From positions 1 to 60,586 of IMG/VR virus record IMGVR_UViG_3300002219_000012: a stretch of DNA of 60,586 nt, one strand, 5' to 3'. Every line of letters starts with the position of its first letter. Within the stretch, counting starts at the first letter, position 1. Positions 29,428 through 50,029 of the stretch are shown here, piece after piece. The notes beneath the pieces were generated by a model that made no database searches, was not told where the DNA came from, and saw only the letters and a program-made list of their open reading frames with translations. The position numbers were made by a program, and so were the translations under genes. Source of the stretch: a virus. Taxonomy: Duplodnaviria; Caudoviricetes.

Positions 29428-29452
29428 AAGAGGCTCCTTTTGATTTTTTCTT

Positions 29453-29481: not shown

Positions 29482-29497
29482 TGTTATTTCTTGCACG

Positions 29498-30076: not shown

Positions 30077-30100
30077 TGTTATTCTCCTTTTTTGGTTAAA

Positions 30101-30182: not shown

Positions 30183-30188
30183 TGATAA

Positions 30189-31517: not shown

Positions 31518-31550
31518 TGACTTTTCCTTAAAAATTTACTAATATACTCC

Positions 31551-32579: not shown

Positions 32580-32582
32580 ATA

Positions 32583-33839
32583 TTAAACCCCTGTTATCCT
32601 TGGTTGTGCCGTCGCTCTCCGAACCTTTTCCGCGCTGACCGTGTTTCTGCCTGCTGCGTGAGAATAAACCGTTTGGACCAATCCGCTACGGGCCTTTAAA
32701 AGAGTTACATCCGACCCGCTGATTAGAAACGCTTTTGGGTTCACCCTTATCCCCAGCCTGAAAATATCGACGTCCGATCCGGTGACGGTAAGGGCTCCGG
32801 CGCCTATCAATAGCTTCTTAAGACGACCCAGGCCCACATCGGACCCGGAAACCGCCACGTCTCCAAACAGCGCTTGCAATCGCCTGTCTTTGGTCAAGGC
32901 AACGTCGCTACCCGCGACCGCAACAGGGCCGACCGTGGCATCAATCTTCTTATCCGCCAGTAGGGTTATCGGCTGTCCCGATAACGCAAAGGCTTTTGTC
33001 CCGGCAGCTACTTTACGGGAAGCAAATAAGGCGACATCCTGGCCGTCCGCGCCGATGGCTCCGGAGTCGATATGAAAAACCAGTTTCCCCTTGAACCCGA
33101 CCGCCGTACCCCTAAAGGCAATGGCCCCCGAAGAAGCGGAAATCTTGCGCTGGGCCGATAAATCGACAGCCGTCCCCGTAAGTTCTACCGCGCCACTCCC
33201 TGCCGAAACAAACGAGTCCCGTCTTAACCCTACGCTTTGACCGGTTTCGGCAATCGCACCCGCACCCGCTTCTATTTTTCGGGCGACGATAAGGGAAACA
33301 GACGTTCCGGACGTGGCCAGGCTCCCGGCAGAAGCCGTTAATGGGTATGTTCGATCAAAGTCAACCGTTGTCCCGGAAAGAGTTAAGGCTTTGCTCTCCG
33401 CCGCGATTTTCCTTGTCGCAACCAGGTCAATGGCTGTCCCCGTTAGCTCAATGTCCCCGGCAGCAATCGGCAGCGGGCAATTTCTATCAAGGGAAACCGC
33501 AGTTCCGGAAACCGCCAGCGCCTTCGTTGCCACCGCAAGGGTTCTTGTCGCCACTAACCCGGCAGCGGTCCCTTGACAAGCCACCACACCGGAGGCCGCA
33601 TTCAGGGCAAAGGTTCTCGCAAACAAAACGCCTGTCCCGGCTATGGCAAGGGACTCTGTGTCCGCCGCTACCCTTCGGGCGGCAATCAAACACAGACCGG
33701 TTCCAGCCACAACAAACTGCCCGCTTACGGCGTTAAGGATGGCCTCCGATGCCCCCCCATCTATCCATTCGCCAAACGTATCGAATGTATCGACAATCGG
33801 CGCACCGTAAAATTCAGACAGTTCGATGTAAGTACTCAA
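32583..33839 (-). CDS. Tail fibre-like protein with ~22-23-aa GxxxxxG repeats
   Basis: Recurrent AxxGxxxxxGxxVxL units. Confidence 0.65.
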   Translation of the reverse strand: MSTYIELSEFYGAPIVDTFDTFGEWIDGGASEAILNAVSGQFVVAGTGLCLIAARRVAADTESLAIAGTGVLFARTFALNAASGVVACQGTAAGLVATRTLAVATKALAVSGTAVSLDRNCPLPIAAGDIELTGTAIDLVATRKIAAESKALTLSGTTVDFDRTYPLTASAGSLATSGTSVSLIVARKIEAGAGAIAETGQSVGLRRDSFVSAGSGAVELTGTAVDLSAQRKISASSGAIAFRGTAVGFKGKLVFHIDSGAIGADGQDVALFASRKVAAGTKAFALSGQPITLLADKKIDATVGPVAVAGSDVALTKDRRLQALFGDVAVSGSDVGLGRLKKLLIGAGALTVTGSDVDIFRLGIRVNPKAFLISGSDVTLLKARSGLVQTVYSHAAGRNTVSAEKVRRATAQPRITGV

Positions 33840-33843
33840 TCCC

Positions 33844-33996
33844 TTACCTCTTCTTCAACAAAGCAATCAACTCTTTCACCAACTCAACCAAATAGCTCAT
33901 ATCCGCCGCGATACTGAATATCCCGCACTTCTTGGGGCCGAAGTTCATCCGGCATTCTTCGCAATCTAATTCAGGGTTAAGCGGGCACTGTTTCAT
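33844..33996 (-). CDS. 50-aa Cys-rich protein
   Basis: MKQCPLNPELDCEEC...KKC; ATGA-coupled; below ORF-track cutoff. Confidence 0.55.
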   Translation of the reverse strand: MKQCPLNPELDCEECRMNFGPKKCGIFSIAADMSYLVELVKELIALLKKR

Positions 33997-34376
33997 TTCT
34001 TTAACTTCGCCCTTTCCTTCGCTGCCGCCGTTTCATAATTCTTGATGAACTCCGGCGCGTCTTCCTTCGCTGCGATGTATTCACGCAACGAGCGGATGGA
34101 TTTCAGATCAATCTCCGCCAGAACAGACACCGGGTCTTTCCATGCGTCGATCTGCGCCAGGGCATCGGCCTCGCTCATAGATGCACAACTGGGCCACTCG
34201 CCTACCAATTCCCGGACGATGGATTCGTCGTCAGCTTCGTATTTGTAAATCCATGCGCCTTTTCCATCCGGAGCCATGAAGCAATCAAACGTCATCCCCT
34301 TGGACTTCAGGACTTCCTTGGGGCCGATCAGATTATTCCCCCTGACTATCGGGGAGACTTTCAAGTAATAAGCCAT
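33993..34376 (-). CDS. Tail-fibre-associated hypothetical protein
   Basis: GGAG SD; LAEIDLKSIRSLRE C-terminal helix typical of fibre accessory proteins. Confidence 0.65.
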   Translation of the reverse strand: MAYYLKVSPIVRGNNLIGPKEVLKSKGMTFDCFMAPDGKGAWIYKYEADDESIVRELVGEWPSCASMSEADALAQIDAWKDPVSVLAEIDLKSIRSLREYIAAKEDAPEFIKNYETAAAKERAKLKK

Positions 34377-34926
34377 CTTCCTCTACCTCCGTATATGTTA
34401 TTTGTCCTTTTTCGTTTTTTCCCATCATTAACCCCGTCGCCTCCAATGACGATAAGGTTCCAACGGAAATAGTACCAATTGATAGACATTCTCTTTTAGC
34501 GTCGTTCAGTAATTTTTGCCGCCAGTATCTATGCTCCGCCTGCTCAAACTGTTCTCTGGTAAAGGCCGGAAGAACGGAAAGCGCCTTTTCAAACGTGGCG
34601 ATCTCGACCAGGGCGTCCTCAATCAGTTTTTTTTCAGACTCAAGCTGGTATTCCTTTTCTTCAAGGTCAATCAAAAGGCGTTCTTTTTCAAACCCTGTTG
34701 CCGATGATAGCTTTTCGTTTATCTCGGTCAGGTCAATGTCAATCCGTCTTCTGCGAAATTCACATTCTTTCAGGGCCTTCAACTTCTGGCTCAACTGAAG
34801 CAGAAGATGACGATAATAGCGCTCAGGCGTTTCTTTCTTGTTGAACCGCGTGATCTGATAAACGCTATTTCCGAAAGGAACTTGCCGCATTTGCTCTTGT
34901 AATTGGCTTAATTTTTCTTTGGTCAT
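34333..34926 (-). CDS. Coiled-coil fibre-associated (chaperone-like) protein
   Basis: Coupled to repeat gene by TAATG. Confidence 0.65.
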   Translation of the reverse strand: MTKEKLSQLQEQMRQVPFGNSVYQITRFNKKETPERYYRHLLLQLSQKLKALKECEFRRRRIDIDLTEINEKLSSATGFEKERLLIDLEEKEYQLESEKKLIEDALVEIATFEKALSVLPAFTREQFEQAEHRYWRQKLLNDAKRECLSIGTISVGTLSSLEATGLMMGKNEKGQITYTEVEEDGLLLESLPDSQGE

Positions 34927-35759
34927 TATAAAATGCCTCCGGATTGGACGCCTGCGCCTGCCCGTTTCGCCGTATCCAGGGTTGCGGCAATCGCGGCAGA
35001 GGTTTCATTGGAAAAATTTAAGTCTTCGATGACGCTGAGCATAGTGGCGGCTGTGTGCCCGCCCAAAATGTAACCCTTAACAGATGAGTTGACACCCGCT
35101 CCGTCGAGTTCCTTTGCTGCATCCAGCGTGGCTGTGATTGCTGCTGATGACTCATTGGAAAAATTTAAGTCTTCGATGACGGCGGTCATAGAATAACCTG
35201 CTATAACCCCGCCCAGAATGTAACCCTTAGCGGATGAATTAACACCCGCGCCAGAGTATTTTGCTGCATCCAGCGTGGCTGTGATTGCTGCTGATGACTC
35301 ATTGGAAAAATTTAAGTCTTCGATGACATTGACCATAGTGGCGACTGTGTGCCCGCCCAGAATGTAACCCTTAGCGGATGAATTAACACCCGCGCCTACG
35401 CTTTTCGCCGTATCCAGGGTTGCGGCAATCGCGGCAGAGGTTTCGTTTGAAAATAAGAGGTCTTCGATGACGGCGGTTTTGCTTCCCGTATCTCCGCCCA
35501 AAATGTAACCCTTAGCGGATGAATTAACACCCGTGCCATAGCCTTTCGCCGTATCCAGGGTTGCGGCAATCGCGGCAGAGGTTTCGTTTGAACATAAGAG
35601 GTCTTCGATGACGGCGGTTTTGCTTCCCGTATCTCCGCCCAAAATGTAACCCTTAATATTGAAGGGCAAAATACTTATAACGGTACAAAGCCCCGACACA
35701 GGCCCGAACAGTAACCTGTTGCGTCCTCGCTGGTATAAGTAACTGCCCATAAGATTCAC
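34926..35759 (-). CDS. Five-repeat beta-propeller-like putative receptor-binding protein
   Basis: Five 47-50-aa GYILGG..VIEDL.FSNE.SAAI.ATLD.AK..GVNSS units. Confidence 0.75.
   Translation of the reverse strand: MNLMGSYLYQRGRNRLLFGPVSGLCTVISILPFNIKGYILGGDTGSKTAVIEDLLCSNETSAAIAATLDTAKGYGTGVNSSAKGYILGGDTGSKTAVIEDLLFSNETSAAIAATLDTAKSVGAGVNSSAKGYILGGHTVATMVNVIEDLNFSNESSAAITATLDAAKYSGAGVNSSAKGYILGGVIAGYSMTAVIEDLNFSNESSAAITATLDAAKELDGAGVNSSVKGYILGGHTAATMLSVIEDLNFSNETSAAIAATLDTAKRAGAGVQSGGIL
34935..35655 (-). repeat. Tandem near-identical DNA repeats, 141/141/144/150-bp period
   Basis: ATGTAACCC anchors at 35068, 35218, 35362, 35503, 35644. Confidence 0.9.
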
Positions 35760-36119
35760 CTAGTCGACAATAGCATTAACAAAGCCCGATATCGTAATTA
35801 CGTTTGTCGTCCCAGCAAACGCCTTCACCGTCGCCCCGTTCTGGAGGATAAGACCCGGCACCACGGGAACAAGGCCGGACTTGTAGGGGATAGAGACGAC
35901 GATATTTTGATCCGGCGCATCCGCTCCACCAAACTCGATTGTCAGAACAACATTTGCCGTATGACTGTTGAACGCCCAGAGCCAGATTTCGTCGTATGTC
36001 CCGGCTGTCGTCCCGGCGACGGCGGTATGAATAGCCGTCCCAGGGGTTTCGACTGCTGCGATCTTGATTGCCCTACCGTCGGTCGAGGAACTTAATTTTC
36101 TCTTAACTACGGTTGCCAT
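35760..36119 (-). CDS. Virion/fibre-associated beta-sandwich protein
   Basis: GGAG SD; DEIWLWA..VPGLILQN. Confidence 0.7.
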   Translation of the reverse strand: MATVVKRKLSSSTDGRAIKIAAVETPGTAIHTAVAGTTAGTYDEIWLWAFNSHTANVVLTIEFGGADAPDQNIVVSIPYKSGLVPVVPGLILQNGATVKAFAGTTNVITISGFVNAIVD

Positions 36120-36177
36120 GTCATTACTCCTAGAATAAAAGAAGTTTGATATGGGGCCTTTGCAGACCCCATATCAC

Positions 36178-36615
36178 TTATGTCGCCGCCGCAATCGTGA
36201 GCAGCGAAGCGGTAACGTCGATGGTGAAGGTTTCTCCGGCCGCCAGGGTAATGGAAGAACTATAATCCCAGTATCCGATCAGCATATCCGTGGCGCTGGT
36301 GTCATCGTAGAGAATGACGTATCGGAAAGGCCCGATCCCTCCTGCCGTGGCCGTAATCACAACATCCGTGGTGCAGGCCAGGGTATAAGTGCCGCCGGAT
36401 TCCGCCGATGAGTCAATGGTTGCCGCATGTCCGCCGGTCGTATATCCGTTGGCCGCGGCGGGGGGCGGATGTTTGGTTATGGGGTCAAAGACCGTATCCG
36501 TGGCCGCTGTGGGCGCGGTATTGGTGAGGGCGAATTTGAGATCGTCGCTCCCCAAGTTATACCCGCCGTTGGCAAGCTGGGATAAAAACTTATTGAAAGG
36601 TACAAAGGATGCCAT
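36178..36615 (-). CDS. Tail structural protein
   Basis: DLKFAL..IGPFRYVILY..LIGYWDY..GETFTID. Confidence 0.7.
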   Translation of the reverse strand: MASFVPFNKFLSQLANGGYNLGSDDLKFALTNTAPTAATDTVFDPITKHPPPAAANGYTTGGHAATIDSSAESGGTYTLACTTDVVITATAGGIGPFRYVILYDDTSATDMLIGYWDYSSSITLAAGETFTIDVTASLLTIAAAT

Positions 36616-36637
36616 GATCGTTCTCCTTCATGGTAAG

Positions 36638-36665
36638 AAGCCCCTCCTTTTTACGGGAGGGGCTT
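36638..36665 (-). terminator. GC-rich hairpin, terminator-like
   Basis: AAGCCCCTCC / GGAGGGGCTT 10-bp stem, weak U tract. Confidence 0.55.
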
Positions 36666-36676
36666 TGGGTTAGGGT

Positions 36677-37063
36677 TTACGCTTCCGAGGCCGGTTCATC
36701 AACGTGCGCCGAATCATCGTAGGTGATGTGCAGCAGAACATTCGCCGCACCGCCCAGGATGGTCGTGTCAAAGGCAACTTTGATCTTCGTGTTGGCCGCC
36801 GTATCCGAATCCGGGTCAAAGACCAGATCCTTGTTGGTCGTATCGGGAACACCGGCAAGGGCTGTTCCGGCGGCCGTGTCGCCGGTCGGAGCTGTTGCCG
36901 TATTGACGGCCGTGGTGCTTCTGGACAAAATAATGGTTCCAGTCGCAACCATCGTGGCGTTCGCCACCACTTCAAATGCTTTGACCACGCCCCGGCAAGG
37001 TACCGGAATGTAGTAATTTTCCACACCGCCTGCGCTGTAAAGATTGACATAAATATCTTTCAT
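36677..37063 (-). CDS. Putative capsid decoration/structural protein
   Basis: AAGGAG SD; Ala/Thr-rich; downstream of capsid. Confidence 0.55.
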   Translation of the reverse strand: MKDIYVNLYSAGGVENYYIPVPCRGVVKAFEVVANATMVATGTIILSRSTTAVNTATAPTGDTAAGTALAGVPDTTNKDLVFDPDSDTAANTKIKVAFDTTILGGAANVLLHITYDDSAHVDEPASEA

Positions 37064-37090
37064 GATCTCTTCTCCTTAAAGGTTATTGGT

Positions 37091-38017
37091 TTATCCTTCT
37101 GCAATCAGGGTAAAGGGAACGGTGTCACAGGTTCCACCGGCCTGGCTTCCGGTCTGCAAGTTGCCCGATGCCAACTTAATGTTGAAATCATAGCCAGCCG
37201 TTGATGTGCTGGTGTCGATGTCAGTGATCGCCCGGTTGTTAATGACGTGGAACTCGTCCGAATCATCGTCCACCCAATAACTTACCGAATGAATGAAGTT
37301 GTTCGAGATAACCCCGTCATAAGCGGGCGAGCTGGCAACGCACTTCACGCCGACAGTCGCATTGACCCAGTTGCCATCAATGGTGATCTGGTGCGTCGAA
37401 AGGGTGCCCTCGATGGAAATGCCGATTCCGAAAATCCCCGTGCCGTAAGCGCCGGGATTCTGGAAAATCTTCACGCCCTGAATGACGACAAGGGCCGAAT
37501 CGGTGATTTCAAGGGCCTTTGTTGACCCGGCTACTGCCGGCTGCATGTGTCCGCCCAAGAACTGCAAACCGTGGCACCCTGCGGGGATGGCAAACAAATC
37601 GCCCGCGCCGTCCGCCGTAAAGCCCATATTGATGAACCGGCAGCCCACTTTTGCCAGGGCGATTGTGTGATGGCCGATAACTCGCGGATACGGCACAAGG
37701 TCCGAACCGCAGCCAATAATGTCGCACTTCTCCGGCAGAACAGTCAGGTCTTCCTCGATCCCATCGCCGCAGACATAAATGTAATTGCGCCGCGCCCACC
37801 AGCGATTTGCGGCAAGGCCGATGCTGGTATTGCTGGCCGTAATGGCCTCGGCAATCGTCGAATAGGGATGGTCGGGGGAGCCGTTGCCGGTTGCCGAAAC
37901 ATTCAGATCGACATAATACTTTCCCGCCTTCGGTCCCTGATAGTCATTGACCATCAGAAAATCGGAAATCGGCCGTGATGCTCGACTCCCGCCCACTGAT
38001 AAAATTCTTTCACTCAT
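37091..38017 (-). CDS. Beta-helix (pectin-lyase-like) virion protein
   Basis: YYVD..GNGS.DHPY.TIAEAI then right-handed beta-helix-like repeats. Confidence 0.65.
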   Translation of the reverse strand: MSERILSVGGSRASRPISDFLMVNDYQGPKAGKYYVDLNVSATGNGSPDHPYSTIAEAITASNTSIGLAANRWWARRNYIYVCGDGIEEDLTVLPEKCDIIGCGSDLVPYPRVIGHHTIALAKVGCRFINMGFTADGAGDLFAIPAGCHGLQFLGGHMQPAVAGSTKALEITDSALVVIQGVKIFQNPGAYGTGIFGIGISIEGTLSTHQITIDGNWVNATVGVKCVASSPAYDGVISNNFIHSVSYWVDDDSDEFHVINNRAITDIDTSTSTAGYDFNIKLASGNLQTGSQAGGTCDTVPFTLIAEG

Positions 38018-38072
38018 GGTGTTTTCTCCTTTATCGGGCCCCCTCAAACAGCGGGGCCCCAGGGTTAAAGGG

Positions 38073-38552
38073 TTATGTTACATTCGGCCTTGCAAATTCT
38101 CCGAACAATTCAGTAGCTTTTCTGTTGTAGGCAAGGGCCGCCTCTTCCGGCGTCCCGTAACAACCCAAGGAAACCTGCTTCCCGTCTTTGTTAATTGTCG
38201 CCCGCCACCGCTTGTTTTGCCGGTGGTAAGAAACGCCCTTGAAGCCGGAAGTGTTGTTGTTGCGGATACGAGTGTTACATAGGTTTTGACTGTTCGAGCA
38301 AAAACGTAGGTTTGATTTTTGATTATTCAGCCCATTGCGGTCTGCGTGGTCAAGAATCTCTCCGGTTTTTGCTTTCATAATCTGCCTGTGCATCTTCATA
38401 GCCCCGTATTTCCTGTATCCGTTATACTGGTGCCGCCATGCGTAAATTACCCCGTGCTCTTTGTGCGCGAACCATTTGAAGCAGTTTATCTCCCCAAAAT
38501 CTTCATCGTCTACCAGAGCAACACCACCGTTTGTTAATTGAATCTCTTTCAT
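38073..38552 (-). CDS. HNH-AP2 homing endonuclease
   Basis: MHRQIM..DHADRNGLNNQKSNLR; SGFKGV..WRA.I..LG.Y.TPEEAA.AYN..A..LFGEFA. Confidence 0.92.
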   Translation of the reverse strand: MKEIQLTNGGVALVDDEDFGEINCFKWFAHKEHGVIYAWRHQYNGYRKYGAMKMHRQIMKAKTGEILDHADRNGLNNQKSNLRFCSNSQNLCNTRIRNNNTSGFKGVSYHRQNKRWRATINKDGKQVSLGCYGTPEEAALAYNRKATELFGEFARPNVT

Positions 38553-38578
38553 GTCCGCCCCTCAATCCCCGCTTGTTG

Positions 38579-38638
38579 CCTTGGGGAAAGCCGGTGGGGT
38601 CTTTACCGGCCTTTCGGGAGCTACCCTATCCCCAAAGG
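38579..38638 (-). ncRNA. Putative three-way-junction RNA upstream of HNH gene
   Basis: CCTTTGGGGA/TCCCCAAGG outer stem, GGG-TAGCT-CCC and GCCGGT-loop-ACCGGC hairpins. Confidence 0.5.
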
Positions 38639-38650
38639 AAAGCTAAGTGC

Positions 38651-39628
38651 TTAAACTGGCTCAGTTAAATTTGTGTGAGCACAGTGCATACGGCGGTTCG
38701 AGCAGACCAGGTTTCCACGCCAACGGGTATCCGCTGTCATAACGTCCGGCTGCCCGAGGACTTCTTTCGTGACCCACTTCGGAGCCGTGAAATTGTAATC
38801 CTTGTGGCTGCGTAGCGAGAGGAAGTTGAGGTTCAGCGCGTACAGGGTTCCGGTTGAAACGCCGGTATCGGCCACAATCGGAGCGCCCTTGTGGGTGATG
38901 TTCTGCCAGCCGGCTTCCACGGCTTTGGTGTCCGTGTAGCGCTGCTGCGGATGCAACGATCTTTCGTAGCCGTCGCGCAGGGTTGCGGTCGTCACGATGA
39001 AATTGGGCAGCATATCCGCCACGTCGCCCATGTTCGGCTCCCGGAATACCTTCTGCAAGGTTTCAAAGGAAATCGCCTCGGCGGTCGTAATGACATTGGC
39101 TTTCCAATCGGCCATTTCGTCCGTGTCGATGGAGCCGTATTCGGTTGAGGTTGTGGCGTTGAACAGGTCGCCCAGGCCGTTGATATTGTCGGCGCTGGCT
39201 GCGGCTGCAATCACGTCGGCGGCCATCTTTACGCGGGCCGCTTTGATGATGCTCTTCATGTACTGCTTGGTGAGGCTGATAATGGCCTCGTCGCCTGTGT
39301 TCTGCGTGAGGTCATCGAGGTTCAGGGTGTTGGACCCGTAAACGCCTGCCCAGCGGAAACGTGCCGCATCAACGATGCTGACTTTCGACTGGTTGATGAC
39401 GGTCGTAGCGCCGTAAGCGCCGGAATTGGACGCCGCGTATTCCAGTGGCACCTTGATCATCTTGCCGCCGTCAATGATTTCGTGGGGCTTTACTTCCCAG
39501 TTGTCGTTGATGCGGGCATTGCCCATGAGCTTCCAGAGCAGCGCGGAGGCTTTGTTAAGGATGTCTTCCGGTTCGGTGTTCAGCCAGAAATATTCGGTCG
39601 TCGCATTTAACTGATTAATCAAAGACAT
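38651..39628 (-). CDS. Major capsid protein
   Basis: 325 aa after scaffold; GG..IKVPLEY, HKGAPIVAD, LYALN..L patterns. Confidence 0.85.
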   Translation of the reverse strand: MSLINQLNATTEYFWLNTEPEDILNKASALLWKLMGNARINDNWEVKPHEIIDGGKMIKVPLEYAASNSGAYGATTVINQSKVSIVDAARFRWAGVYGSNTLNLDDLTQNTGDEAIISLTKQYMKSIIKAARVKMAADVIAAAASADNINGLGDLFNATTSTEYGSIDTDEMADWKANVITTAEAISFETLQKVFREPNMGDVADMLPNFIVTTATLRDGYERSLHPQQRYTDTKAVEAGWQNITHKGAPIVADTGVSTGTLYALNLNFLSLRSHKDYNFTAPKWVTKEVLGQPDVMTADTRWRGNLVCSNRRMHCAHTNLTEPV

Positions 39629-39661
39629 GATATGTTCTCCTATGACTTTAAGAGGCTAGGA

Positions 39662-40414
39662 TTAAGCGCCTCGCTGGGCAGCTAAGACCGCTGCCATCCC
39701 TGCGTCCAAATCCTTGCCTGTTGCTTTTTGTGGTTTGGTCGGCGGCTGTCCTGCTTGTCCTTTGACAACCACTTTCCCCGTGTTTTCCTTGCCCTTTACC
39801 AATTCGAGCGTCTTCTTCATTTCGGCGTTCTCGGCGGCAAGATCATCTTTTTGAATCTGGAAGTAGGCCGACATGGGGTCGTGCATCCCGGTTTTGTCGC
39901 TGGCGAGGAAGTCTTTGATTCTCGCCTGCATATCCGGGGTGCCGAATGACGGGTTGTTTTTGTTGAATTCAGCTCGGGCCGTTTTCGCGTCACGATCCGA
40001 AAGCTCTTTTTTGAAAAGCTCCTGGGCTGTCATCAGCGTTTTTTCGTGCTGTGCCTTAGCTACCAGTTTGTTTGAAGTCGCCAGTAATCCTGCGAGTTCT
40101 TTCTGGTAATTGTCCGCCATCGGGTCGAGTTCCTGAATCTGCTTCTGCACGCCCGCGATTTCCGTATCGTAGTCGGGCCCTTGGGGTGCTGCTGCCGGGG
40201 CTTCGCTTTTGCTCATGTGCTGCTGAACAATCGGAGCCACGGTTTCCGCAAACTTCCGCAAGGTTCCCAGTTCATTGGCCTGTGCGTCGTGCAATGCTTT
40301 CAGGTTCATGTACCCTTTTGCCGCTTCTTCCCCGCTCTTGAACGGTGTTCCTTCAAGGCCGGTCGGTTCTGCGGCATTTCCGCCATCATTCACGCCTGTG
40401 TTCTGTCCTTCCAT
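39662..40414 (-). CDS. Capsid scaffolding protein
   Basis: Charged helical protein between portal and capsid; FKS.EE..KGY.NL. Confidence 0.75.
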   Translation of the reverse strand: MEGQNTGVNDGGNAAEPTGLEGTPFKSGEEAAKGYMNLKALHDAQANELGTLRKFAETVAPIVQQHMSKSEAPAAAPQGPDYDTEIAGVQKQIQELDPMADNYQKELAGLLATSNKLVAKAQHEKTLMTAQELFKKELSDRDAKTARAEFNKNNPSFGTPDMQARIKDFLASDKTGMHDPMSAYFQIQKDDLAAENAEMKKTLELVKGKENTGKVVVKGQAGQPPTKPQKATGKDLDAGMAAVLAAQRGA

Positions 40415-40503
40415 ATTTCCTCTCCATTCCTCGGCCAGTTTTAATTTTCATGTTGTCCGTTTCCGGCATGAATCCGCTGGTTCTCCGACTTTTGGTTAAA
40501 ACA

Positions 40504-40588
40504 ATAAAAAAAGCCGGAACTCATGGATGGTTGGTCCACAAATTCCGGCTTTAAAATCCCTATTGGGTAGGTTCTAAGTCCCGTTATG
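40504..40588 (-). terminator. Conserved GGGACT element + long intrinsic terminator, copy E3
   Basis: CATAACGGGACTTAGAACCTA-CCCAA-TAGGGATT..AGCCGGAATT...AGTTCCGGCT + T run. Confidence 0.75.
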
Positions 40589-40593
40589 AAAAA

Positions 40594-40791
40594 TTACTTT
40601 ATTTCATTGAAGCTGATCCTTTCACGTGAAACAGGTTTTGTTTGCAAAAAAACATCTCCCATGAATCCCTGTGAGACATTAATCTCAACTGTTAATTCTA
40701 TTTTACCCGTGGGCCTGCCTGAAAGCAAGAAAATAATTTTCCGTTGCAGCGCTTCCGAGACGGCATTAAGTTTTTTCTGCTTGTCGTCCAT
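40594..40791 (-). CDS. 65-aa protein (alpha-beta-beta-beta, YezD/DUF2292-like pattern), candidate RNA-binding regulator
   Basis: Helix then TGKIELTVEINVSQG; ends 5 nt before E3. Confidence 0.55.
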   Translation of the reverse strand: MDDKQKKLNAVSEALQRKIIFLLSGRPTGKIELTVEINVSQGFMGDVFLQTKPVSRERISFNEIK

Positions 40792-40793
40792 AC

Positions 40794-41063
40794 TTAACCC
40801 TTACAGGCCAGATGATTTTCTTTCAAATAGGCATTGTACTCACTTCGTGACTGTAACGGCGGTTCTCCGTGCCTCTGGAGGACCTGGCAGGCCGACGGCA
40901 ACCATTTCACGTCGTTGACGGAATCGCATTGTATCCCGCCCGCGCTCAAAACCTTCTTGGCCATCCAGCCACAAGAACAGCGGTGATGTTTGGGAACTCT
41001 GTTGACCTTGTGAAAAACATCATGTTTCTTTCCGCATCGGCATTGGTATTCGTATATCGGCAT
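40794..41063 (-). CDS. FmdB-family zinc ribbon protein
   Basis: MPIYEYQCRCG...CSCG..AKKVLS. Confidence 0.85.
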   Translation of the reverse strand: MPIYEYQCRCGKKHDVFHKVNRVPKHHRCSCGWMAKKVLSAGGIQCDSVNDVKWLPSACQVLQRHGEPPLQSRSEYNAYLKENHLACKG

Positions 41064-41067
41064 ATTT

Positions 41068-43014
41068 TTACGCTCCTCCTGTTGGTTGTGGTGCCTTTGG
41101 TGCCGGTTGTCCCGGCTTCTTTACGTCTCCCGGGCCTCCCTGGGGCTGCATCAACACCTGTTTGAGTTGAATGGCCGCTTCTTTGGGAAGACCGGCTTCA
41201 ATCAATACCTGTAACGCCATATCAAGCTGGTTCTCACCGCCGCGCTCCACTTCCTCTTTCCAGTTGGGAAGGTTCAGCGCTTCCAGGACATACCGACGGC
41301 TTAAGAGCCCTTTGTCGGACAACCCCAAAACAAGCTCCTGATTCTGCAAACTGGTCCTCGGGGTCGATGATCCGGCCTCCACCACGTAATTGAACTTTCT
41401 CCCGGCAAATTGAACGCCCGAGAAATCCACCTTCTCCCCGCCGATATTGACCGACTCCGACTTGGTGCCGAAGTTCTGCCATAATCCAATCGCCCAGCGG
41501 CTTCTTTCCTCGGCCAGTGTGTCAATGGCTGACGTTTTGGACTGCATCAATACCTGATTCCGTTCTTGCAGGGCTACAATGGCGCTGGCGGCGATAACTC
41601 CGCTCGGGGCAATGCCTCTATCGGCATCTTCGATCTGATAAACGCGGTCGAACATCTTGACGATCAGATCCAGTACCTGAAAAAACGTAGCCGGCAGGTT
41701 TGGAATCTGCATAAACTCAATCCGGGCGTTCGGCGTGGACGGCATGAGGATCAATCGCCCTGTTTGGGAAATCTGTGCTTCGATCATCTCCCGGGTAATC
41801 CCGCAATTCTGTTGAATGATCAGCGGTGGGGCCATGACGTTAATGACGTAGGCGATCAACTTAGCTATGATTTGGTTGATCTTCTCGATCAGGTCGGCGG
41901 TCTGTTCGGCTGCGGAGAAACCCCATAGCGACACCTGGTCTTTATAGGAGTTGGCGAAATAAACGGGCAATCTGCCCCACGGGTAGGTGAACATAGCCAT
42001 TTCGGTAGGTAGCGCCGGGTTGATATTCGGATTTGCTGAATCATCCAGGACCACCCAGCCGCCTTGACTTCCCGGGTCTTTAGTTTTGGATATGGTGATC
42101 TTGCGGATGCCGTCACGGTAAACCGGTTCTTTCGTTGTTTTGACAGCGACAAGGGGATTGCCGTCCTCACCCACCACCTGCATACCGAACTCATCAACGA
42201 CCGGCTGCGATTCCGTTGTCGTCCTTAATCGGTCATCCCTCACCCATACCTCAATGACAATCCCACGCTCGACGGCCTTGTTTCCTTCGGTTTGGGCCTG
42301 TGATTTGACCGTCATCGGGTCGGAGTAATTGCCGATAGTTTGTCCCGCGTTCCGGACAGGCGGCTTGTAATCTTCCCGGACGGTGCCCAGGAGATCATAG
42401 GCATCTTCGGCTGCGATATCCTTGACGTTGAAATCCTTTTCAATCTTCGATGTGAAATCGACATACAGATAGGCGACATACGGGGCTTCGGTGGCTAGGT
42501 CGTCATAAAATCCCGGTGCCGGGAAGAACGCGAACGGGTCCGTCACCATAATATCGGGCCGATCTGCGGCCTTATCGAAATAAGGCTTCTCTGGTGTTAT
42601 GCCGTAAATCTCCATTTGCCGGGCGGATGATCGCGTCTTCTGCTGCTGGTTGGTATCCTTCCACCACTTCTTGAGCGCAACCGTTAAAACCTGTTCCGTG
42701 CCGTCGTTTGTGCCGTCCAGGTCAACGACTTCCCCGGTCGGATTGCGGGCGGTAATGTTGGAGACGGTGCGCTCCACGTTGGCAAACAGGAGATTAACGA
42801 CACCGGTAATTGGTTTTGGCGAATATCCCTTCCTGCCGGTCAACTGGCGCATGGGGACCCCTTTGTACATGGCATAATCGTTTAAAAACGATTTATGCAC
42901 ACCCAAGCGTTCTTTTTCGAGCCTCGCAACATCGAACAGCATGGCCGCGAAGTCAGCGACATCCGCATGTCCACGCGGAGGTATTAAATTCAGATTCCAT
43001 CTTGGATCAATCAT
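41068..43014 (-). CDS. Portal protein (podovirus type)
   Basis: ~650 aa between TerL region and scaffold; NLLFANVE, VTDPFAFF, WG.S..E, G...SGV.AASAI. Confidence 0.85.
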   Translation of the reverse strand: MIDPRWNLNLIPPRGHADVADFAAMLFDVARLEKERLGVHKSFLNDYAMYKGVPMRQLTGRKGYSPKPITGVVNLLFANVERTVSNITARNPTGEVVDLDGTNDGTEQVLTVALKKWWKDTNQQQKTRSSARQMEIYGITPEKPYFDKAADRPDIMVTDPFAFFPAPGFYDDLATEAPYVAYLYVDFTSKIEKDFNVKDIAAEDAYDLLGTVREDYKPPVRNAGQTIGNYSDPMTVKSQAQTEGNKAVERGIVIEVWVRDDRLRTTTESQPVVDEFGMQVVGEDGNPLVAVKTTKEPVYRDGIRKITISKTKDPGSQGGWVVLDDSANPNINPALPTEMAMFTYPWGRLPVYFANSYKDQVSLWGFSAAEQTADLIEKINQIIAKLIAYVINVMAPPLIIQQNCGITREMIEAQISQTGRLILMPSTPNARIEFMQIPNLPATFFQVLDLIVKMFDRVYQIEDADRGIAPSGVIAASAIVALQERNQVLMQSKTSAIDTLAEERSRWAIGLWQNFGTKSESVNIGGEKVDFSGVQFAGRKFNYVVEAGSSTPRTSLQNQELVLGLSDKGLLSRRYVLEALNLPNWKEEVERGGENQLDMALQVLIEAGLPKEAAIQLKQVLMQPQGGPGDVKKPGQPAPKAPQPTGGA

Positions 43015-43042
43015 AAAAGCCCCCTTCATGCGAGGAGGCTTT
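43015..43042 (-). promoter_or_regulatory. Hairpin sequestering portal SD
   Basis: AAAGCCTCCTC-GCAT-GAAGGGGGCTTTT immediately before ATG. Confidence 0.6.
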
Positions 43043-43099
43043 CATGCGTTCTCGTTAATCCCTTTTGCGTTTCATAAAGAGAGGCAAAAGTTGAATATG

Positions 43100-43198
43100 T
43101 TAAATTTTCTCGCCGGCCATAACCTTTTCCAGAAGGCTGACCGTAAATTTCAGGCCCCGAATCAGCGCCCGGATGATCTGTTTTACGTCGTCGCTCAT
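43100..43198 (-). CDS. 32-aa amphipathic peptide
   Basis: MSDDVKQIIRALIRGLKFTVSLLEKVMAGEKI; ATGA-coupled; below ORF-track cutoff. Confidence 0.6.
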   Translation of the reverse strand: MSDDVKQIIRALIRGLKFTVSLLEKVMAGEKI

Positions 43199-43434
43199 TT
43201 CAGCGCCCTCAATTCCGCCGTGGCGAAACGAACGATGGTCCCTTTGTCGATCTGTTGCCAGTCTTTCCGCAACTCAATGGCCACGATGTATTTCCTCAGC
43301 ATGGTCTTTTTGAAGTTCCGCCGCGCTGCGAATGGCAGCCGTTCATAAAAATTATCTTTGATGTTCTCGCCTATTACGCGGATGTATCGGATCTCGCTTT
43401 CGGTGGTCCAGGATGTTTTATCCGGTGTTGTCAT
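43195..43434 (-). CDS. Hypothetical protein
   Basis: Coupled ORF chain. Confidence 0.65.
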   Translation of the reverse strand: MTTPDKTSWTTESEIRYIRVIGENIKDNFYERLPFAARRNFKKTMLRKYIVAIELRKDWQQIDKGTIVRFATAELRALK

Positions 43435-43728
43435 TTATCCCCCGATCAATTCGATCTTTGGCTTATCTTCTTTGGGTTCTTCCGGACGCAGGGGAATCAC
43501 CAGCCCGCACGTGACACAGGCGAAACCGACCTGGGACATCGCCGTTTCCGCCATCCCGGATGGACTTTGCAGCGCCGGTAATTCTTTTAACGTGAACGCC
43601 TTGACAAACACCCTCTCCCCGCAAGGACAAACGCGGTCTTTCAACTGATCGAGCGGGACGTTCATCGTCATGTTCTGCGGGCCCCTCGGCTTCAATCCCA
43701 GTAAATTCCTTCGCATTGCTTCACCCAT
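43435..43728 (-). CDS. Zinc-ribbon protein
   Basis: CPCG..FACVTCG. Confidence 0.7.
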   Translation of the reverse strand: MGEAMRRNLLGLKPRGPQNMTMNVPLDQLKDRVCPCGERVFVKAFTLKELPALQSPSGMAETAMSQVGFACVTCGLVIPLRPEEPKEDKPKIELIGG

Positions 43729-44155
43729 TTGTAACCTCCTGTTTGTGTGAGCGTTTATGCAGCGTCAGCGCTCCGGCTGTTTTGAGTTCTTTCCCGCAAA
43801 CGTCGCAGATATAGGCAGGCTTGCCGACGTTGGGCATGAATTTGATGTTCTTTTCTTTGGCCAGCAGTATCTTGTCTCCATCAATATGGAGTTGATCACC
43901 ACGCGGGACAATCCCAAGCTCGTTGACCTGCACCCGTGGGAGCACCGTCAGCCTCCCCGATGGGGCCAACTGAGCGCAACATTCAGGGCATGTCAGTTCC
44001 GCCGCCTTGGTCGTTGTAAACGGGAGCCAATCAATGTGATACGGCAGCAGGCACTTTACCATTGCGCCGTTCGGTGGCTTATTCGGGTCGTAAAAGATTG
44101 TGGTGATGAAATCCGTCCGGCCGCAATTACAACACTTTACCTTTAATCCTTGCAT
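43721..44155 (-). CDS. Zinc-finger protein (C-terminal C2H2)
   Basis: CCNC, CPEC, CDVCGK...L..HKRSH. Confidence 0.75.
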   Translation of the reverse strand: MQGLKVKCCNCGRTDFITTIFYDPNKPPNGAMVKCLLPYHIDWLPFTTTKAAELTCPECCAQLAPSGRLTVLPRVQVNELGIVPRGDQLHIDGDKILLAKEKNIKFMPNVGKPAYICDVCGKELKTAGALTLHKRSHKQEVTNG

Positions 44156-44325
44156 TTATTTACCTCGCTATCGCTTCCTCTGTGAACTGCAACATATTCC
44201 GAAGTTGGCGGGTTTAGCTCGCAGCACCGCAAACAAGGAACATCCCCGGAGTAGTAATAGGGGCTGTGTGCCTTGACCATTTCATAAAAACCCTGATGAA
44301 CGCAGGTCTTACACTTCTCGCTCAT
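44143..44325 (-). CDS. Small Cys-rich protein
   Basis: CKTC..CLRC; coupled. Confidence 0.55.
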   Translation of the reverse strand: MSEKCKTCVHQGFYEMVKAHSPYYYSGDVPCLRCCELNPPTSEYVAVHRGSDSEVNKCKD

Positions 44326-44594
44326 CGCTTTTTCCTCTTAACATTTTTGGCAGCCGCCGCTCGGATCTTGCCCAGTTCGGCGGTAATCAATCCAACGCCG
44401 ACATCGACGTTGTAGTGAATGCCAAGCACGTCGGTACTCATTGCCGGTGGGACCATAGACAACACGGACCTCAGTTTTCCCTTGATGTTCTCTTGCAGGT
44501 TCATCCGGATAACTCCATCGACTAACTCGGCAACTTTTTTGGCCAGCGCATCTAATTCTGACGGTGTGACTTGGTTCTCAAATAAATAGCTCAT
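44322..44594 (-). CDS. Hypothetical protein
   Basis: ATGA-coupled. Confidence 0.6.
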   Translation of the reverse strand: MSYLFENQVTPSELDALAKKVAELVDGVIRMNLQENIKGKLRSVLSMVPPAMSTDVLGIHYNVDVGVGLITAELGKIRAAAAKNVKRKKR

Positions 44595-44838: not shown

Positions 44839-45555
44839 TTACCCCTCCTCGATTGTGAAGACATTACTCCGAGCGTGGTCCATCCACATACAACGTGACG
44901 ACAAGGAATGAACCAGCCCGCCCATTGCCGTTATAACCGGGTCTTTATCCAAGAATTCCCGTATTCTATTGCGTAAAACGTCGTTCTTTCCATAAAACAG
45001 CCGCTGTGCGTCTTTGTCCAGGGCGGCGCTTATCGCCCGGATATAGACATCGAAAGCCTTTGGATCGTTGAAATCATCAGGCGGGGCGATAAGGACAGCC
45101 TGCTTGTTTCCCCCGGCCCTGCGGAGATCCTCGTTGTAAAGGGACAGCTCCAGGATAAATCGGCTTTCGTCTCCAATCCATGTTTGGAGCAGCCCCGGAA
45201 AGAGGCCAAACCCATATTCGGCCCGCATGTTGACCATTTCATCAAACAGGGTGCCGATGCCGTGGCTTTCATATTCCGCCAGCAGTTGAAACGGTGCCTT
45301 CTCCGGCTTTCCCTTACCCTTAACAACTCCCACAATGGCGATATATCCTGGCTTATTCGTGGCCTTGTTCTTATCGGTGATTACCGTCGGCCAGCCGATA
45401 CAGCCAAACAGATCGTAATATAATTGCCCGGTTTCCGTGTTCTGGTAGTGGTGCGCCCGCTCAACAAACGGCGTCCCGGTGATGTGCGCCTCGTCGATTC
45501 TCTGCTGGTATAGTTGCCAATTCAATGGTTCTGGCAGGATCTTCTTAATTTTCAT
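44839..45555 (-). CDS. Degenerate terminase-nuclease (RNase H)-like protein
   Basis: FGCIGWP..GYIAIVGV..FQLLAEY..WIGD..DPVITAM pattern; directly after TerL. Confidence 0.5.
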   Translation of the reverse strand: MKIKKILPEPLNWQLYQQRIDEAHITGTPFVERAHHYQNTETGQLYYDLFGCIGWPTVITDKNKATNKPGYIAIVGVVKGKGKPEKAPFQLLAEYESHGIGTLFDEMVNMRAEYGFGLFPGLLQTWIGDESRFILELSLYNEDLRRAGGNKQAVLIAPPDDFNDPKAFDVYIRAISAALDKDAQRLFYGKNDVLRNRIREFLDKDPVITAMGGLVHSLSSRCMWMDHARSNVFTIEEG

Positions 45556-46819
45556 CCGGGAAGTCCTTTGCACCGCTGTTGTCGAAAGGTGTTTCGCCCA
45601 TCAAGTCTGTCATCGCCCAAACCAGAGCATCTAACCGGTTTGGTGATTTGTCGCCCGGCAGCCAAAGACACAATTCATCTTCCAGTTGCGGGAATGGCCC
45701 GACGTGATGAACACGATCCTTCTCATATTTCGCGGATACCGGCTCCGCCCTGACTATTTTCCCACGGGAGGCATGTACGAGCTTGATGGGCACGTTTTTA
45801 TCAACCTGCTTGATCGTAATGGCCACCATTTCCCCGCCCTGGTTCTTCTCCGCCACAATCAGATTGGCCTTGTGCCGATGGTAGGCATCAACGGCGGCCT
45901 GCGCCCATGCCAAAGGTGATCCGTTCAGCGTGCAATCTTCCAGGACAAAGCCCTGATCAGCCAGTGAACCGGCCACGATGATTCCGGCGGCATCCCCGCC
46001 GCCATCGGCAGAGGTTGTCGGGTCGATGGCCACAACGGTCTTTGACAGTTCGGGGGCTTCTATAACCCTGTTCTTTTCGATGTTCTCCCGGGTCCATAAT
46101 GCGCCCGGTGCCTGATCGATGTCCTCGGCCAATATCTCCATGCGATAAGCCAGACTGCTCATGTCCGAAGTGATTTCATCCAGCGCTTCCCGGCTTATGT
46201 AGGGATTGTCCATGCTGGAAAAATGGAATGTAGCCCAACGTAGAGGGTCGGTTTTGGCCAATAGCTGTGCTTTTTTGAATAATTTGGCTGCATGTTGCGG
46301 ATCGTCGGCTTTTGAGGCTGATCTTGACCGGAGCGATGGAGGCGTATAGATGAACGTAGCGTTCCCGTTATTGTCCAAAAGCATTGGAGCGCCCACAACG
46401 CCCCAGGCGTCCTCGTTCATCAGCTGCCATTCATCCAGGAGCAATTCGTCAGCGTAATCCCCACGCAGACTATCGGCGTTCCAGGCGGTCTTCGCCCTGA
46501 TCCGCTGCTCGGTGCCCTTGCGTTCAATAATGTGTTCGGATTCGTTTTTATAAAGAGCCTTCTTGTCAAAACCATCACCCAGCGCCCTTGTAACCGTAAC
46601 CCAAAATCTTTGAATTTGCTCACTCGTGGGTGCCGCATACAACACTCGTTTGCCCGCCAGAAACCTTTGGACGGCATAAACACCAATGCCGACTGTCTTA
46701 CCGCCCCGGCGTCCCGCCCGGATAACCTTGCGCTTTGCAGGCGAATCAATAAACGCGGCCTGCTTCGCGTGAGGTCGCGGTAAGTGAACATCAACTGGTA
46801 TTTGTGTTATCTCCATCAA
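45545..46819 (-). CDS. terL: Terminase large subunit
   Basis: Walker A AGRRGGKT, Walker B LLLDE, SMDNPY, VAIDP, EKNQGG, SPNRLDALVWA. Confidence 0.95.
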   Translation of the reverse strand: MMEITQIPVDVHLPRPHAKQAAFIDSPAKRKVIRAGRRGGKTVGIGVYAVQRFLAGKRVLYAAPTSEQIQRFWVTVTRALGDGFDKKALYKNESEHIIERKGTEQRIRAKTAWNADSLRGDYADELLLDEWQLMNEDAWGVVGAPMLLDNNGNATFIYTPPSLRSRSASKADDPQHAAKLFKKAQLLAKTDPLRWATFHFSSMDNPYISREALDEITSDMSSLAYRMEILAEDIDQAPGALWTRENIEKNRVIEAPELSKTVVAIDPTTSADGGGDAAGIIVAGSLADQGFVLEDCTLNGSPLAWAQAAVDAYHRHKANLIVAEKNQGGEMVAITIKQVDKNVPIKLVHASRGKIVRAEPVSAKYEKDRVHHVGPFPQLEDELCLWLPGDKSPNRLDALVWAMTDLMGETPFDNSGAKDFPDEN

Positions 46820-47412
46820 TCCCCGCTATTGCCCTTGGGCGCATCGTCGTAAATGACCTTAAATAAAAATTCCACCGGTCCGCCGTCCTTGCCTGTAACT
46901 TCGTGCTTTTCGGAATATTTCTTTGGTAATATCTTGGCTATGTAGAACTTGCGGGAATCAACGCGGAGACGTGAACGGTTGACATGCTCATGGTCAATGA
47001 ATGGCTTGCCCTCTTCCGTAAAGGCCATATCCAGGGTAGAATCATCAGAGATTTCGATAATTTCATCGAATAGAAGATCGGCTTGATTGAGCTTCGCCTG
47101 TGCGTATTGGGGAGAAAACTCTTTATCATCCGCCAACATTTGTATAATTTCCCGATAAGACGGCATCTTATCGAAGTCTTTGATCATGTCCTGGCATATT
47201 TGGCGTAGGGATTTGGAGCTGGTGGATATTCGGTTGCAGATTTCTTTTTGAATTGCGGCCATTTCGCTATCTGTGCGCTTCTTTGGGCGGCCGCCCGGGT
47301 GTTTTGGTTTTGGTATGATTAGCTCACGGCTTTTATTTTTAGCGCCGCATAAGGCACCTCCTGGCTTTTTGTTGCGTTTCTTTTTAGGTGTTGCCTTCTT
47401 TTCTCGTTTCAT
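46816..47412 (-). CDS. terS: Terminase small subunit (Sf6-like)
   Basis: GGRP..IC..I...SLRQIC..QYAQAK..IEISDD..RLRVDSRK..K..PKKY. Confidence 0.9.
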   Translation of the reverse strand: MKREKKATPKKKRNKKPGGALCGAKNKSRELIIPKPKHPGGRPKKRTDSEMAAIQKEICNRISTSSKSLRQICQDMIKDFDKMPSYREIIQMLADDKEFSPQYAQAKLNQADLLFDEIIEISDDSTLDMAFTEEGKPFIDHEHVNRSRLRVDSRKFYIAKILPKKYSEKHEVTGKDGGPVEFLFKVIYDDAPKGNSGD

Positions 47413-47419
47413 GGCTGCC

Positions 47420-47525
47420 ATTATACAGCCTGTTATTTTGGGAAAACTTTATAGGGCGGTGAAATGAATATTAATGGACGGTAAAGGGCAGTTAAAAGAC
47501 AGCTAACCGACCAAACAAAGGACTT
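47420..47525 (-). promoter_or_regulatory. Late promoter: TATAAT with no -35, preceded by ~11-bp phased direct repeats
   Basis: -10 at 47420-47425; GG(G/A)C(G/A)GT-like units at 47454, 47476, 47486, 47497, weaker at 47508 and 47520. Confidence 0.6.
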
Positions 47526-49995: not shown

Positions 49996-50029
49996 AATAT
50001 TGCATCTCCTGTTGATGCCCTGAAAAGAA

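Follow-up and report, generated by a model that had tools for sequence, protein, structure and literature searches.

Among the late genes of IMGVR_UViG_3300002219_000012, an IMG/VR viral contig of 60,586 nucleotides (nt) that is referred to here as the window, a structured and conserved RNA element recurs at three places (E3, E2 and E1), each time directly before a strong intrinsic terminator predicted from the sequence. In related phages, the element is found together with the gene of s65, a protein of 65 amino acids (aa) whose open reading frame (ORF; 40594-40791, on the minus strand, as are all the late genes) ends just upstream of E3. Because s65 is present wherever the element is present, it appears to be the best candidate for the factor that would let transcription pass the terminator. 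A first-pass annotation had proposed that GGGACT elements in this DNA are served by a trans-acting protein, and had named as candidates s65 and the FmdB-type zinc-ribbon protein encoded 5' of it, both between the portal and scaffold genes, with the s65 ORF ending 5 nt before E3. The coordinates agree with that layout, and the elements are indeed real conserved RNA elements; of the two candidates, it is s65 that tracks the element.

All three copies share one architecture, which consists of a 5' box of the form CATA[A/C][C/A]-GGGACT, a hairpin (P1) of 4-5 base pairs (bp), a 3' box, a spacer of 3-5 nt and the terminator. The 3' box starts in the last two G of P1, and reads GGGACT at E2 and E1 and GGGATTTT at E3. 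At E3, the stop codon of s65 (40596-40594) is followed after 5 nt by CATAAC (from 40588) and after 11 nt by GGGACT (40582-40577), which together form the 5' box (40577-40588, minus). P1 comes next (40559-40571, minus; CCTA, a CCCAA loop and TAGG), then the 3' box (40553-40560, minus), which begins within the last two P1 pairs, and finally the predicted terminator (40504-40552, minus), an 18-pair stem followed by a T7 run. In E2 (30100-30184, minus), GGGACT lies at 30176-30171, P1 at 30165-30151, the second GGGACT at 30152-30147 and the predicted terminator, with 17 pairs and then T6, at 30144-30107 (minus). The corresponding parts of E1 (4452-4538, minus) are GGGACT at 4530-4525, P1 at 4517-4503, the second GGGACT at 4504-4499 and a terminator from 4494, followed by T6. 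By sequence, all three qualify as intrinsic terminators, with 17-18 pairs and U6-7, and the whole elements fold with energies of -30.8 kcal/mol at E3 (z -4.5 against shuffles), -35.7 at E2 (z -7.1) and -34.6 at E1 (z -7.5).

What repeats in E1-E3 is a structure, not an identical sequence. Taken by itself, the hexamer GGGACT shows no enrichment in the window (16 matches, 22 expected); the signal is the composite element with its three occurrences, and a 15-mer of E3 has no second window copy at up to 3 mismatches. Rfam 15 covariance models gave no match at E1-E3, either at the gathering score or at E <=1; the only Rfam family recognized in the window is int-alpA, at other positions. Three other readings of these sequences were dropped: CsrA-type boxes, as the GGA core is unconserved (GGG, GGU and AGA variants occur); a T7-like or phage RNA polymerase promoter at CATACAGGGACT, as no RNA polymerase gene was found and the giant ORF of the window is a polyvalent protein; and a boxA-like 3' spacer, which suits some lineages only and fails for the window's own copies.

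Relatives were collected by a scan anchored on the portal gene, which yielded 80 loci in viral contigs (50-93% portal identity); a scan of genome contigs added 6 loci, of which 4 were used, giving 84 loci in total. The architecture that follows s65 is conserved across these relatives, while the sequence of the P1 stem is free to change with its pairing kept. The paired arms include CCUA/UAGG, CCUGA/UCAGG, CCCGC/GCGGG, CUUAGC/GCUAAG, CCUGUCA/UGACAGG and CCCCGG/CCGGGG, and as many as 35 different 5' arms occur among 42 distinct copies. When only the segment between the boxes is folded, a hairpin forms in 42 of the 42 distinct copies, with at least 4 bp in 38, and every copy is more stable than the mean of its own shuffles (mean -5.9 against -2.2 kcal/mol). 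The loop ranges from 3 to 12 nt, and in one locus (L014) it holds an extra inserted hairpin; since pairing of the stem is kept while the loop varies, it is the stem that matters and not the loop.

MAFFT and RNAalifold returned no consensus pairs on 37 copies, which is attributed to misaligned covarying arms, and a hand-seeded covariance model (R1) recovered the copies with an imperfect alignment of P1, in which 67% of the cells are paired. P1 was therefore analysed sequence by sequence; relatedness among the sequences is not corrected for in the covariation, and misalignment weakens formal statistics. R1 is also weak on copies of the E1/E2 type, two true copies scoring 16-17 bits and one being missed, and for this reason the terminators in whole genomes were listed by script.

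The two boxes resemble each other, and they do so within each element. Over the copies, the consensus is NNGG-N1-2-AC for the 5' box, and GG-N1-2-ACU or GGGAUUU for the 3' box. Boxes of one element agree at 4.8 of 7 positions, against 4.1 across elements (40 elements; 0 of 5000 permutations, in a test that ignores kinship among the sequences). Box pairs are specific to lineages, as in GGGACU/GGGACU, GGAUAC/GGAUAC, GGACAC/GGACAC, GGAGAC/AGAGAC and GGUUUC/GGCUUC, and this variation by phage lineage fits a symmetric reader that is encoded by the phage and co-evolves with its site. The NNGG of the 5' box is, in addition, complementary to the CCNN at the base of the terminator 5' arm, with a mean of 3.8 bp against 3.2 bp in mismatched combinations (40 elements; 0 of 5000 permutations, with kinship again ignored). 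The two sides of this putative helix, P0, change together: orthologous E1 copies have CAGG/CCUG or UAGG/CCUA, and further paired changes are UCGG/CCGA, ACGG/CCGU, CCAG/CUGG and UUAG/CUAA.

Searches for s65 found 49 loci with a first profile and 57 with an iterated one, which added diverged forms of the type '...PTGEF.L.V.VNQGGVRG...'. Co-occurrence was counted over the 46 distinct loci, out of 84, that reach the capsid gene: element and s65 are both present in 38 and both missing from 7, one locus has s65 only (L057), and none has the element only. Two loci that looked like exceptions at first pass fit this pattern. In L029, s65 stands directly before its element; in L060, s65 has been relocated upstream of the portal gene and is followed there by one element, with a second element after the zinc ribbon, and s65 lies upstream of both. 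The gene of s65 always stands 5' of the first element. The element requires at least four changes, read as losses, on the portal tree. Across five genomes, the only non-structural window genes that track the element are s65 and a weakly HNH-like 131-aa gene, in a gene-content profiling that was of little use because the early genes are almost entirely different between genomes.

The same association is seen in whole genomes. E3, E2 and E1 stand at orthologous places in the window (G000) and in two further s65-bearing genomes (G001 and G002), and three complete genomes that lack s65 (G006, G007 and G008, from two separate loss lineages) contain no element anywhere. Their best R1 scores are 16 bits, none and 19 bits, respectively, all within coding sequence and without a terminator, and the terminators after their zinc ribbons have neither boxes nor P1. 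A pattern scan of viral contigs for the motif returned 57 stretches, 4 of them with a terminator, all in contigs already in the set. Occurrence of the motif in genomes without either small protein, which the first-pass annotation had regarded as telling against a link, was looked for among the relatives, in the whole genomes and by the pattern scan, and was not found.

In the loci without s65, other sequences follow the zinc ribbon. The L066 group has a plain short terminator and an AT-rich insert with CCACTTATC repeats, L059 a plain terminator and an insert, L073 a plain hairpin of -21.5 kcal/mol and L024 a decayed terminator; in G006, the homologue of the 144-aa gene that lies downstream of E1 is preceded by the word TGATATAAT instead of a terminator. 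Three CCACTTATC repeats in an AT-rich insert, or a TTATC-N6-GATAA palindrome by TGATATAAT, were seen after the zinc ribbon in L066, L058, L087 and L061/63/67, and upstream of the 144-aa homologue in L105 (G006); these inserts and palindromes look like operator sites for a DNA-binding regulator. A promoter consensus scan of the s65-less regions found a forward-strand site in one of three (L059, 9 of 12 matches) and a reverse-strand site in L087, and found none in the G006 region despite its TGATATAAT word. We take the replacement of the element by promoters in s65-less phages as a weakly backed lead only. A further side observation concerns G002 (the record of L020), which has at ~38662 (minus) a fourth strong coding-strand terminator behind two box-like words (ACGGGAC..AGGACUU) and without a P1 hairpin, perhaps a reduced form of the element.

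The s65 protein appears to form a new small family. Pfam, PHROG and NCBIfam hold no match for it; an index of 5.8 billion proteins contains 13 near relatives, and a set of 1.84 billion proteins contains 30 cluster representatives (E <=0.001), each 57-106 aa long. The AlphaFold (AF2) model, with a predicted local distance difference test score (pLDDT) of 85, consists of one helix (residues 3-24) and a long beta-hairpin (strands 30-40 and 43-54), in agreement with the helix and beta pattern read earlier from the sequence. The likeness to YezD/DUF2292 that had been suggested with it found no support, as DUF2292 was found neither among 33 members of the family (Pfam, E <=10) nor among 5 diverged ones (E <=5). 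A fold check with Foldseek against the PDB likewise gave no relative at E <=0.001 (best GnsA, E 1.2), and the best score in a wide fold search by VIA was Z 4.2. BFVD holds a single match, a viral protein of 89 aa without a name (E 0.011, 31% identity) that is probably an orthologue, and the ESM Atlas holds viral clusters without names at 0.82.

As a homodimer, s65 is predicted with a score of 0.55 (0.53-0.56 between runs), against 0.01 for the best control. Of 30 proteins with structures solved as pairs, 20 attain this mark, as does 1 of 23 with structures solved as single chains. At least 97% of the contacts are shared between runs, with a partner pLDDT of at least 72, and the predicted dimer is symmetric, its first strands pairing into a four-stranded sheet.

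The other candidate, the 89-aa zinc-ribbon protein (40794-41063, minus), passes the TIGR02605 model 'FmdB family zinc ribbon protein' with 35.2 bits (cut-off 31.3) and reaches E 5e-7 and 30.1 bits with PF09723, under the gathering score of 34.4. Its cysteines C8, C10, C29 and C31 (CxxC...CxxC) are invariant in 27 orthologues, and its AF2 model (pLDDT 74) has an N-terminal four-strand ribbon followed by two helices. The top fold match, RbpA, is weak in Foldseek (E 0.07-0.1, root-mean-square deviation (rmsd) 14-16 over the full length); by VIA it reaches Z 5.1 with an rmsd of 2.6 over 41 ribbon residues only, and is tied with ribosomal and MCM zinc ribbons, the others at Z 4-4.7. The zinc ribbon was detected in 69 of the 69 loci whose sequence extends sufficiently beyond the portal gene, element-less loci included, and since these loci have it too, it is best seen from its distribution as a conserved head-module gene without a specific tie to the element. 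The suggested analogy to the Com protein of phage Mu, a small zinc protein acting on RNA just downstream, finds no support here.

Our reading, which we regard as quite possible though somewhat short of probable, is that a dimer of s65 reads the two look-alike boxes, occludes the base of the terminator and permits read-through into the scaffold and capsid genes. E3 and its copies E2 and E1 would be protein-dependent transcription attenuators inside the late operon. By default, RNA polymerase would halt at the terminator, and s65 would be produced from the segment upstream of E3, together with the terminase, the portal and the zinc ribbon. Once s65 has accumulated as a symmetric dimer, it would bind both boxes on the nascent RNA and keep the 5' box paired with the start of the terminator 5' arm (P0, 3-6 bp), or otherwise occlude the base; with its base prevented from closing, the terminator stem would no longer stop the polymerase, which would proceed into the scaffold and capsid genes. 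In the clade of the window, the same event would take place at E2 and E1, releasing the tail-side and the last genes in turn. Since this proposal has s65 produced along with terminase and portal, scaffold and capsid would be delayed. The data show the element with its conservation and covariation, the strength of the predicted terminators, the co-occurrence with s65 and the predicted dimer, whereas RNA binding by s65, the anti-termination direction of its effect, P0 as the antiterminator and the portal-before-capsid timing are the parts that we infer.

Several points weigh against this reading. P0 is short, and in a fixed register three of its pairs are near-constant and the fourth is formed in 15 of 42 copies; at the window's own E3 it amounts to 3 bp (CGG/CCG). 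For its shortness, and because the permutation tests ignore relatedness, we treat P0 as an antiterminator helix only tentatively. Co-occurrence may reflect linkage, since s65 and E3 adjoin in most loci and one deletion removes both, and the association of E2 and E1 with s65 counts as one event, these two copies being confined to one clade. An independent-pairs test on the tree, made with the first and less sensitive s65 profile, comprised 4 pairs only and was non-significant (p 0.25-1). L057 retains a diverged s65 beside a decayed element, and L073/G008 retains its terminator-like hairpin of -21.5 kcal/mol without s65, boxes or an obvious promoter, and must therefore pass the terminator in another way. 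The protein itself resembles no known RNA-binding fold in the Foldseek and VIA searches, has a net charge of about +3 (11 K/R, 8 D/E), and carries the invariant glutamates E32 and E36 in strand 1, probably on the exposed face of the sheet.

Some of these points lend themselves to an alternative that we consider unlikely, namely that the element is a regulated terminator read by another factor, either from the host or, on the phage side, the zinc ribbon or a C2H2 protein (43721-44155), and that s65 is a co-inherited head-module protein such as an assembly helper. The place of s65 in the head module between portal and scaffold, adjoining E3 so closely that a single deletion takes out the two, agrees with this, as do its lack of an RNA-binding signature, its conserved acidic residues and the appearance of the RNA-polymerase-binding RbpA, weakly and tied with other ribbons, among the nearest folds of the zinc ribbon. 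A conserved host reader is, however, hard to fit to boxes that vary from one related phage to another and yet change jointly inside each element, and the zinc ribbon and the C2H2 protein also occur in genomes without any element. That s65 and the 131-aa gene alone follow the element among the non-structural genes, and that the relocated s65 of L060 still precedes both elements, likewise speak against this alternative.

The spacing of the stop codon upstream bears on a second alternative, in which there is no dedicated protein and the element is a cis-acting RNA that tunes the terminator, a site of RNA processing or stability, with hairpins that shield either the 3' end of the message before them or the 5' end of the one behind, or an attenuator read by a ribosome that terminates at that stop codon. 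In most E3 copies, 0-25 nt separate this stop codon from the 5' box, and at E2 the distance is 12 nt, so that a terminating ribosome would mask the box in either case; at E1, by contrast, it is 74 nt, and the second element of L060 and the element of L064 follow a non-coding spacer and not a stop codon. P0 would compete with the terminator base with no protein involved, and antiterminator RNAs acting in cis are known from HK022. Tn916 is reported to provide another (PMC11658703). An always-on antiterminator before its own terminator would, however, render the terminator pointless, two look-alike boxes changing in concert are the signature of a reader and not of a fold, and the strict co-occurrence with s65 would be left without an explanation; we hold an RNA without a dedicated protein to be quite improbable. 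Least probable, and in our view very much so, is that s65 binds the boxes in the manner of TRAP or PyrR as a pro-termination factor, with the free RNA (P0 and P1) reading through and bound s65 shutting off the capsid, tail and late genes as a brake or negative feedback: the co-occurrence, box and dimer evidence is the same and none of the data give the direction of the effect, but a P0 of 3-6 bp against terminators of 17-18 bp makes termination the expected unaided default, shut-off of scaffold and capsid by a product of the same operon would make little sense in a lytic programme, and in lineages that lost s65 and the boxes, a plain terminator was retained or decayed, and no constitutive antiterminator was gained.

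The first-pass annotation had also proposed that capsid, tail and lysis genes are unlocked in a timing cascade. The three sites are kept in G000, G001 and G002, whereas the virus MetMV, the closest named record, and three other s65-bearing contigs that are incomplete (G004, G005 and G010) have the capsid-side E3-type copy only; the three-site layout is restricted to the window's own clade. E2 is flanked by a head-closure-like gene (30189-31517) on one side and a 192-aa gene (29498-30076) on the other, and E1 by the gene of a 4580-aa polyvalent protein and a 144-aa gene (3993-4427), whose product belongs to no recognised family and is not a recognisable lysis gene. At both sites, a ribosome-binding site and a start codon lie within ~20-25 nt of the U run, and since this gap appears too short for a promoter, the genes behind E2 and E1 would be reachable only by read-through.

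RNA-library contigs of relatives (90-95% alike; four runs compared over 28500-44500) span the scaffold and capsid genes and end at 40374-40406; because a DNA-like run diverges at the same place, these ends are uninformative on transcript ends. Between the E3 terminator and the scaffold gene lies a conserved structured 5' untranslated region (40415-40503, minus; ~90 nt) with nested helices and repeated GGACAAC-like motifs after hairpins, which ends at the ribosome-binding site. It shows pairing-preserving changes (CCAG/CUGG, CUGGC/GCCAG) and is also found after the terminators in L010, L016, L020, L024, L066 and L073; the window copy's own fold is unexceptional (z -1.0). As relatives without s65 and without the element retain this leader, it is separate from E3, and a candidate cis-regulator of scaffold expression in its own right.

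In the order of transcription, the late genes of the window encode the small terminase (46816-47421, minus), a 424-aa protein with a terminase nuclease domain (45545-46819), the portal protein (41068-43029, minus; PF05133, phrog_156), which is the upstream neighbour and the anchor by which relatives were collected, the zinc ribbon and s65; the non-coding stretch with E3 follows, and then a 250-aa gene (39662-40414, minus) and the major capsid protein (38651-39628, minus; phrog_9953). The 250-aa gene is the first gene 3' of E3 and is assigned to the scaffold by its place between portal and capsid; it has no family match in Pfam or PHROG scans and is kept in all five genomes compared. The 424-aa protein has no tblastn match in five related genomes, all of which do keep its downstream neighbour (44839-45573), and this suggests that the terminase module has been exchanged.

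'Methanosarcina virus MetMV' (L001, MK170447) has the same gene order as the window, both small ORFs and the same element. According to its description, its host was assigned in silico, by spacer mapping, abundance correlation and k-mers (PMC7164591). Portal relatives (L184-L189) sit in contigs of metagenome-assembled genomes (MAGs) assigned to a delta proteobacterium (a contig of 188 kb), Syntrophaceae, Desulfobacterales and Smithella, and also in two methanogen MAGs, and phages of this group carry terminators of the bacterial type as well as ribosome-binding sites, and encode a DnaB helicase. Since relatives sit in Deltaproteobacteria-type MAG contigs, the hosts are probably syntrophic bacteria of that type. 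An archaeal host is disfavoured by these contigs, the two methanogen MAGs aside, and by the DnaB-type helicase in the window, and the archaeal host given to MetMV is therefore open to doubt.

Some further features of the window were recorded. The 4580-aa protein is encoded by a single ORF (4605-18347, minus) with ART-PolyVal, LPD1 and LPD5 domains, as in a 'polyvalent protein', and E1 stands directly behind it; its MetMV counterpart has 3002 aa. Two minus-strand copies of the int-alpA RNA lie at 50018-50083 and 38567-38636, one scoring 51 bits, above the Rfam gathering score, and the second 35.4 bits, just under the required 35.8. The second copy is directly 5' of an HNH-AP2 endonuclease gene (38073-38552), and a third HNH-AP2 gene (28627-29427) has a structured-looking stretch (29417-29482) in the matching relative position. 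A 277-aa ORF holds four to five tandem repeats of 141-147 nt (34915-35759), which points to a structural protein with repeat domains. Eight direct repeats of ~32 nt with 64-69 nt spacing (60046-60566), at the end of the contig, resemble a CRISPR array and would be either flanking host DNA or an array carried by the phage. Sequence from the left end of the contig is found again near the right end (1-76 and 58784-58859, 71% over 76 nt; 1-21 and 58509-58529, 100% over 21 nt), and these recurrences may represent duplicated starts of genes or regulatory regions, or hint at a circular junction of the contig.

Comparison with known systems shows that the element and s65 are members of none of those tested. 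As in the BglG/SacY/LicT proteins and their ribonucleic antiterminator (RAT), a dimer is proposed to act locally, terminator by terminator, on a short RNA that abuts or overlaps the terminator 5' arm, which would keep the terminator stem from forming. In contrast to that family, CAT and PRD domains are absent from s65 and its relatives (no Pfam match), E1-E3 consist of two direct-repeat single-stranded boxes around a free-loop hairpin instead of a single imperfect hairpin, and the setting is a phage late operon and not sugar control. The lambda N/nut system has in common with our proposal that the phage protein is small, that the nascent RNA presents a linear box together with a small hairpin, that there are several sites per genome and that terminators are passed. 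Lambda N, a disordered arginine-rich peptide, works processively in concert with Nus factors, and its sites lie far upstream. Unlike nut, each element here touches its terminator and has a P1 loop unconserved in length and sequence, and unlike N, s65 is modelled as a folded helix and hairpin of modest net charge.

The RNAs of HK022 (put), Tn916 and ICEBs1 are likewise structured, stand 5' of terminators in a mobile element and occur in more than one copy. The put RNA and that of ICEBs1 act in cis without a dedicated protein and make the polymerase processively resistant. The antitermination RNA of Tn916 is reported to do the same (PMC11658703). Unlike these RNAs, the element described here strictly co-occurs with a protein gene and sits directly on its terminator. 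Mu Com resembles the present case as a small zinc protein encoded just 5' of an RNA structure in a phage late region. It activates translation of mom by opening a hairpin, whereas the ribbon here is FmdB-type, has s65 between itself and the element, and persists in element-less relatives. ANTAR targets have two tandem modules, the second being the terminator, and a dimeric RNA-binding reader, as is proposed for s65. They are two hairpins with conserved hexaloops; here the single-stranded flanks are conserved, the loop is free, and s65 lacks an ANTAR domain. Very small phage proteins that suppress intrinsic termination are described for Xp10 (p7) and P23-45 (gp39) (PMC6624301, PMC4513864 and PMC3351154); unlike what is proposed for s65, they need no specific RNA site, and the PDB searches with s65 gave no fold similarity to them. 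By analogy, the proposed system is most like the BglG/RAT and ANTAR attenuators in its working, and most like lambda N/nut in its setting.

Protein-controlled terminators are a classic timing device of phages, but the well-studied cases are drawn from a small number of model phages that infect enterobacteria and Firmicutes. The element is a new and well supported RNA motif, with 42 distinct copies, strong covariation and no Rfam entry, and its single candidate partner is a very small protein of a family without annotation, from uncultured phages of what are probably syntrophic Deltaproteobacteria-type hosts. It would be a bolder claim, and one that we consider rather doubtful, that s65 founds a new family of minimal dimeric RNA-binding antiterminators of ~60 aa, which read direct-repeat boxes around a spacer hairpin and work as a 'portal first, capsid later' timer, the switch having been copied in one clade to gate tail and late genes, and box and protein co-evolving into a private switch of each lineage. 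The pair is compact, comprising a 65-aa protein and an RNA of ~90 nt, and if our reading is true, it would be a compact and orthogonal transcription switch. Related phages have exchanged this switch for plain or decayed terminators, which makes the group a natural experiment in the evolution of late-gene control.

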